From an uncultured Bacteroidales bacterium (lineage in GTDB: Bacteria > Bacteroidota > Bacteroidia > Bacteroidales > WCHB1-69): a DNA stretch of 64,000 nt. A program made the position numbers and the translations under genes. Shown here piece by piece: positions 29,699 to 31,048 of the stretch; positions within the stretch are counted from its first letter, which is position 1, and every line of letters starts with the position of its first letter. A model generated the notes under the pieces. It did not search any database and was not told the origin of the DNA. It was given only the letters and a program-made list of their open reading frames with translations. The DNA lies in contig CAMVOL010000007.1 in assembly GCA_947169105.1 (NCBI GenBank), positions 6,005 to 70,004 of the forward strand, in the 5' to 3' direction.

Positions 29699-31048
<1,350 letters not shown>

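Follow-up and report, generated by a model that had tools for sequence, protein, structure and literature searches.

The PurF protein encoded in the window (i.e. the whole stretch of 64,000 nucleotides that was analysed) lacks the catalytic N-terminal cysteine of its family, and is probably an ammonia-dependent phosphoribosylamine synthase. Comparison with its homologues indicates that it quite likely derives from the glutamine PRPP amidotransferase of the B. subtilis ([4Fe-4S]) type, has lost glutamine hydrolysis, and would now make phosphoribosylamine from PRPP and free ammonia. PurF is a textbook Ntn amidotransferase, whose catalysis comprises two half-reactions. To our knowledge ammonia-only behaviour of PurF is known from laboratory mutants only. 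The absence of the cysteine is conserved and the glutamine pocket appears to have been rebuilt, so that purines are most likely made directly from free ammonia.

The purF open reading frame lies at 29699..31048 on the minus strand and encodes 449 amino acids, opening ATG GGA TTA CTC GGA GTT (i.e. MGLLGV). The ATG (31046..31048, minus strand) stands in place of the Cys1 codon and is followed by that of Gly2. The in-frame codons 5′ to the start are ACC, TTA and TAA, the last of these (31055..31057, minus strand) being a stop three codons upstream, and the stop codon of purL lies at 31069..31071, leaving 20 nt between the two genes. A propeptide ending in cysteine is therefore impossible. The TIGR01134 (purF) model is aligned with residues 2-441 over model positions 2-432, and B. 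subtilis PurF (PDB 1AO0) is aligned from its Gly2 onward. Since both alignments begin at position 2, the place of Cys1 is filled by the initiator methionine, or is empty after its removal, and the N-terminal cysteine nucleophile of a class II (Ntn) glutamine amidotransferase is absent. The preliminary description of this DNA had proposed the loss of the cysteine, and had excluded a propeptide from the upstream TAA; the stop is present as described, and the loss is supported by the MG start, the model alignment and the orthologues.

Among the best 120 homologues out of 5.8 billion proteins, which are 72-99% identical to the window PurF, 119 start with MG and the remaining one is apparently truncated. 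Orthologues were drawn from 94 separate genome assemblies from many laboratories, and the upstream DNA was read for each. The start is MG in 92 and MA in two; none has a cysteine beside Gly2, and none contains a stop or frameshift. The Cys-less PurF is thus conserved over about 90 related species, and the alignment of orthologues suggested in the preliminary description gives a clade-wide loss (94/94 MG or MA). An error of assembly or gene calling, i.e. a lost TGC or TGT codon or a wrongly chosen start, can be set aside as extremely improbable. The same start recurs in 94 orthologues from independent assemblies, so that of the window purF is no assembly error; a stop lies three codons upstream with the end of purL close by, and an error at the 5′ end could not produce the correlated substitutions found elsewhere in the pocket. 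By their record titles the orthologues come from rumen and hindgut metagenomes of yak, sheep, goat, water buffalo, roe deer, red deer, reindeer, cattle and horse (faeces), and several of the genomes bear the name Candidatus Cryptobacteroides. A yak-rumen MAG contains the nearest of them, which is 99% identical. The ammonia-rich gut or rumen niche suggested earlier fits these sources.

In its descent, its fold, and the features of its phosphoribosyltransferase (PRTase) half and Fe-S site, the window protein belongs with the Fe-S PurFs of the B. subtilis type. It scores 454.4 bits against TIGR01134, above the curated cut-off of 350, and matches 1AO0 with an E value of 3e-146 (phmmer). The AlphaFold2 model (mean pLDDT 90.2) comprises an Ntn glutaminase domain and a type I PRTase domain with the whole fold kept; it is superimposable on 1AO0 over both domains with a TM score of 0.94, and on E. 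coli PurF with TM scores of 0.89-0.93. The PRPP-binding motif VDDSIVRGTT (residues 344-353; 29990..30019, minus strand) is present, and D345, D346 and S347 are invariant in the clade. Cys236 (30341..30343), Cys382 (29903..29905), Cys432 (29753..29755) and Cys435 (29744..29746), all encoded on the minus strand, are the probable ligands of the Fe-S cluster, an assignment made by homology to the B. subtilis enzyme. They are invariant in 83/83 clade members, and these cysteine columns are nearly invariant across the family. Both the PRTase motif and the Fe-S cysteines had previously been described as intact.

Comparison with the known B. subtilis enzyme (PDB 1AO0 and 1GPH; TIGR01134) illustrates what has been kept and what has been lost. 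The two share the two-domain fold with 48% structure-based identity (Foldseek), four cysteines at the family Fe-S ligand positions, the PRPP motif and the place of the gene in a Firmicutes-style operon. By contrast, the window PurF has neither the propeptide nor Cys1, HNGN has become GDGN, Asn replaces Thr76 and Ser replaces His71, while conservation of Arg73 has slackened in the clade as a whole.

The changes in the pocket were analysed by setting 83 distinct members of the clade against 127 cluster representatives that bear the Cys, over the aligned part of the protein, where a switched site is one that is at least 80% conserved in the Cys-bearing set and changed in the clade. There are ten such sites, six of which lie inside the glutaminase motifs. 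At position 1 the Cys of the Cys-bearing PurFs is replaced by Met or is absent. His71 becomes Ser, Thr, Cys or Ala (Ser in the window PurF), Gly78 becomes Ser or Ala, and His101 becomes Gly, Ser or Ala. Thr76 (codon at 30821..30823, minus strand) is replaced by Asn in 83/83 clade members. Asn102 is acidic in all 83, as Asp in 39 and Glu in 44; in the window PurF it is Asp (GAC at 30743..30745, minus strand). The oxyanion-hole motif HNGN thus reads GDGN in the window PurF, with Gly103 kept and the Asn-Gly pair broken, so that a second feature of the catalytic definition of an Ntn glutamine amidotransferase is absent, besides the nucleophile. The roles of Thr76 and of Asn101/102 are presumed from the E. 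coli enzyme. Arg73, which in that enzyme we take to be the binder of the glutamine carboxylate, is relaxed over the clade (Lys in 61, Arg in 12 and other residues, including Leu, Cys and Asn, in ten), and is Arg in the window PurF. Asp127, presumably a glutamine-binding residue together with Arg73 on the basis of the E. coli enzyme, is kept in 79/83 members including that of the window. Tyr74, Gly103, Asn107 and Arg26-Gly27 are invariant in the clade, and the most basal members already have Asn76 and Glu102. The conversion of Asn102 to an acidic residue together with that of Thr76 to Asn points to a remodelled pocket rather than to one lost residue. It looks as though the glutamine pocket has been remodelled, and has not merely decayed. 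The preliminary description missed these two changes, and so understated its own case for the loss of the cysteine.

Some of these features could be read as signs that the window PurF is still glutamine-dependent, either through another nucleophile in the pocket or by channelling of ammonia from a separate glutaminase partner. The glutamine domain keeps Asp127, Tyr74 and Arg26-Gly27, and the predicted structure retains the whole fold. Yet the N-terminal residue after removal of methionine would be Gly (Ala in two species), which offers no nucleophilic side chain, most members have Lys, Leu, Cys or Asn instead of Arg73, and the oxyanion Asn is gone. The E. coli mutants C1A and C1S are inactive with glutamine (PMC3261824). 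There is no free-standing glutaminase gene beside purF, and the class I GATase model matches GuaA alone in the assembled genome, where PyrG is cut by a contig end. We therefore regard continued use of glutamine as very unlikely.

The window purF lies in an intact, Firmicutes-style operon of nine genes in the order purC-E-L-F-M-N-H-D-folD, running on the minus strand from 35982 down to 23763. The first gene (35296..35982) is purC-like, with a match to TIGR00081 (E 4e-36) that falls short of the curated cut-off, and is followed by purE (34807..35274; TIGR01162, 212 bits) and purL (31069..34776), which encodes a large FGAM synthase of 1235 amino acids. Downstream of purF (Fe-S type, without Cys1; TIGR01134, 454 bits; 1AO0 match) are purM (28598..29665; TIGR00878, 444 bits), purN (27877..28446; TIGR00639, 214 bits), purH (26196..27725; TIGR00355, 678 bits) and purD (24763..26013; TIGR00877, 497 bits), the product of which consumes phosphoribosylamine; folD (23763..24677) is the last gene of the cluster. 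All are on the minus strand. Alignment of PurL to PurQ (PDB 3D54) revealed that its glutaminase Cys (ICNGFQ) and His-x-Glu are kept, in agreement with the earlier statement that PurL retains its glutaminase triad.

The surroundings of purF are well conserved, with purL upstream and purM downstream in 78/80 related loci. The operon order varies in the clade. Most relatives carry purC between purL and purF, giving a gap of about 730 nt (loci L044-L123), whereas in the genus of the window purC-purE lies upstream of purL and the purL-purF gap is 17-50 nt. Since the insert is purC, the extra gene is no unknown partner of PurF, and a partner encoded between purL and purF was rejected. We note that two other lineages of Cys-less PurF, one named Tissierellia, likewise fill the purF slot of pur operons. 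On one contig (locus L155, from GCA_041828345.1) PurF has Ser in place of Cys1 together with Asp102. The called gene adjoining it (L155:12771-17350) encodes at least 1650 amino acids, with GARS (PurD) and FGAR-AT linker, AIRS_C and GATase_5 (PurL) domains, and is an apparent PurD-PurL fusion.

The genome containing the window is a 2.54 Mb, 95.9%-complete MAG, in which the matches to TIGR01134 or GATase_7 are the window PurF and GlmS only. A 614-amino acid GATase_7 match on contig 23 was considered as a second PurF and rejected, as it is GlmS (starting MCGIV). A search with the PRTase Pfam model found no other PRTase with a long reading frame in this genome. A second PurF may lie on DNA that was not assembled. 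The Bacteroidales also have a long type of PurF, of 620-650 amino acids with a propeptide ending HEC|GI. Searching with a long-type protein as query, this was not found in the genome of the window or in 6/6 genomes of its genus; the same query found it in 11/22 genera of the family, and in addition to the Cys-less gene in 2/5 genomes tested, these being from more distant clade members. The Cys-less PurF may thus not act alone in every genome of the clade. The two genomes in which both are present are G170 and G171 (those of loci L088 and L117); the long-type match there omits query residues 371-400, and the open frame is 589 amino acids in G171.

A second type of PurF-like protein without Cys1 occurs in other Bacteroidales genomes (loci L030-L033). 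It has about 470 amino acids and starts MGGFFG or MSGFFG. None was found in 18 genomes of the window's genus with a query that did detect the type elsewhere (E 1e-46 to 1e-50). Two small genomes from the family of the window's genus (G022 and G023) have it as their sole PurF-like match besides GlmS. Like the window PurF it keeps the PRTase half, but the two are only about 30% identical, and the paralogue has a C-terminal insert and has had all its glutaminase motifs dismantled (HRGQEG and VRY are lost), whereas the window PurF keeps both HRGQEG and VRY. The paralogue is moreover found together with a long Cys-bearing PurF in 2/5 genomes sampled. On the strength of the low identity and the retained motifs the window PurF was rejected as a member of this type, and the sequences indicate that its loss of the cysteine is a separate and more recent event within canonical PurF.

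Selection on the two domains was estimated by the pairwise Nei-Gojobori method for 2336 pairs within the Cys-less clade. The N-domain has a median omega of 0.166 and the C-domain one of 0.053. When dN of the N-domain is divided by dN of the C-domain at comparable divergence, the result is 2.78 for the Cys-less clade and 1.13 for the Cys-bearing neighbouring group. The N-domain is thus relaxed about 2.5-fold relative to the C-domain when compared with Cys-bearing kin, though clearly still under purifying selection, and constraint on the PRTase half matches that in normal PurFs.

This relaxation could be taken to mean that the window PurF is a decaying or non-catalytic relic, the cell salvaging purines or obtaining phosphoribosylamine otherwise, e.g. 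non-enzymatically from ribose-5-phosphate and ammonia, or from a side reaction of another enzyme. PurF-independent routes to phosphoribosylamine are known in Salmonella (PMC3485032). Furthermore, 5/18 genomes of the genus (G002, G003, G005, G012 and G014, which are 80-94% complete) have no PurF match; either the operon was not assembled in these, or de novo purine synthesis has been lost in some species, where it may be dispensable. However, omega values of 0.05-0.17 argue against decay, as do the Fe-S cysteines and PRPP motif that are invariant in 83 sequences, the lack of stops and frameshifts in 94 orthologues, and the position of purF within an intact pur operon of nine genes. New invariant residues have also arisen in the pocket. 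A relic is therefore unlikely, and we prefer a functional, ammonia-dependent enzyme.

The history of the loss was examined in a tree of 144 sequences calculated by FastTree; this is unrooted, gives local support values only, and was made with both trait columns left in the alignment. The Cys-less sequences of the window type form one clade with a support of 100, consistent with a single loss of the cysteine at its base. Closest to this clade on the unrooted tree lie Bacteroidales orthologues that bear the Cys and have the classic junction NEEC|GVFG, a group spanning five other genera of the same family. Within that group three species of one genus (g28) are themselves Cys-less: L133 and L138 start MGVIGVF and L141 starts MSVFGVF, while their closest kin keep MNNINEEC|GVFG. 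These three have lost Cys1 recently, and independently of the window clade. The junction in L133 is gaATG|GGT where its kin have gaaTGC|GGT, compatible with a one-base deletion by which GAA-TGC would have become a new ATG in frame with Gly2. All three still have Asn102, suggesting that loss of the cysteine came first and remodelling later.

Cys-less sequences occupy at least seven places on the tree. In a survey of 150 representatives of 50%-identity clusters nine have another residue in place of Cys1. Asn102 is missing from eight of the nine (seven have Asp and one Ser), two of the eight being short fragments from the window PurF's own clade and so not independent, compared with 3/130 of the Cys-bearing representatives. 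On the tree all informative contrasts between loss of the cysteine and change of Asn102 agree in direction, though there are about four of these (sign test, p 0.125), so that a link between the two across lineages is suggestive, not proven.

Ammonia-dependent activity has precedent in the family. In E. coli PurF mutation of Cys1 abolishes the use of glutamine while that of ammonia is kept, as Mei and Zalkin 1989 is summarized within PMC3261824; the preliminary description had relied on this property, and for the E. coli enzyme rightly so. These mutants have lost the Ntn nucleophile, and their ammonia-dependent synthesis is the activity proposed for the window PurF, but they are engineered single changes, whereas the window PurF is natural and conserved, has further changes in the pocket, and serves a genome where no other PurF was found. 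The PRTase half of wild-type PPAT also accepts ambient NH3 (PMC12017579), and external NH3 is thought to reach PurF through the glutamine site (PMC12017579, main text and S14 legend). The closest precedent in print for a natural PurF homologue that lacks the catalytic cysteine is Mlab_0150 of Methanocorpusculum labreanum, with Ser in the place of Cys1 (PMC3261824). This second copy accompanies a normal PurF and was set aside by the authors as probably not PurF, whereas the window gene is the only copy found and lies in the pur operon. In the literature that was searched a natural ammonia-only PurF is not described; besides the archaeal Ser variant (PMC3261824) there is only the activity of mutant and wild-type enzymes with NH3, and no measured activity of any natural Cys-less PurF was found there. 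What our analysis adds to the preliminary description is the apparent remodelling of the pocket, the recurrence of independent losses and a natural series of intermediates.

Carbamoyl-phosphate synthetase I provides an analogy, as an ammonia-dependent enzyme that has lost the catalytic Cys and keeps a vestigial glutaminase domain as a structural or regulatory module. It differs in having another fold (a class I triad GATase), in serving another pathway and in being eukaryotic. In the window PurF external NH3 or NH4+ would enter by the former glutamine pocket and run down the interdomain channel to PRPP, and the N-domain would have been retained because it forms the ammonia channel and closes the PRPP site. 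We speculate that the acidic residue at position 102 and the invariant Asn76 may bind NH4+ and deprotonate it at the mouth of the channel. The ammonia levels of the rumen would suffice for such an enzyme. It is possible, if somewhat doubtful, that selection has re-engineered the former glutamine pocket into a dedicated site for the capture and deprotonation of ammonium, in which case the enzyme would be more than an impaired amidotransferase living on leftover ammonia activity. There would then be a natural class of ammonia PRPP aminotransferases, emerging time and again among anaerobes that live where ammonia is plentiful (rumen Bacteroidales, Tissierellia and others), by an ordered path of Cys loss followed by remodelling.

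Glutamine metabolism as a whole has not been lost from the organism, since glutamine synthetase is present in the genome along with PurL, GuaA, GlmS and PyrG, the last being cut off at the end of contig 74; wholesale loss was thus rejected as an explanation. The class I GATase model is matched by GuaA only. An asparagine synthetase of the AsnB type was not found in this genome, where the class II GATase_7 matches are PurF and GlmS only, and CarB, the large subunit of carbamoyl-phosphate synthetase, was not found using TIGR01369 at E<=1e-10. Aspartate carbamoyltransferase (pyrB, at C39:20232-21131) and a carbamate kinase scoring above the curated cut-off (arcC, at C9:61807-62727) are present. 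Free ammonia may therefore be the source of carbamoyl phosphate as well, and the gene content of the MAG fits a cell that draws several nitrogens from ammonia rather than from glutamine.

In a whole clade of abundant uncultured rumen bacteria, free ammonia appears to feed the committed step of purine synthesis through the only PurF found. This would tie nucleotide synthesis directly to rumen ammonia, in a genome that has a carbamate kinase and where neither CarAB nor AsnB was found. Automatic annotation as glutamine amidotransferase, and the metabolic models built with it, would give the wrong nitrogen donor for these organisms. For the family, the Cys-bearing, recently Cys-less and fully remodelled forms would provide a natural series for the shedding of a glutaminase by an amidotransferase.
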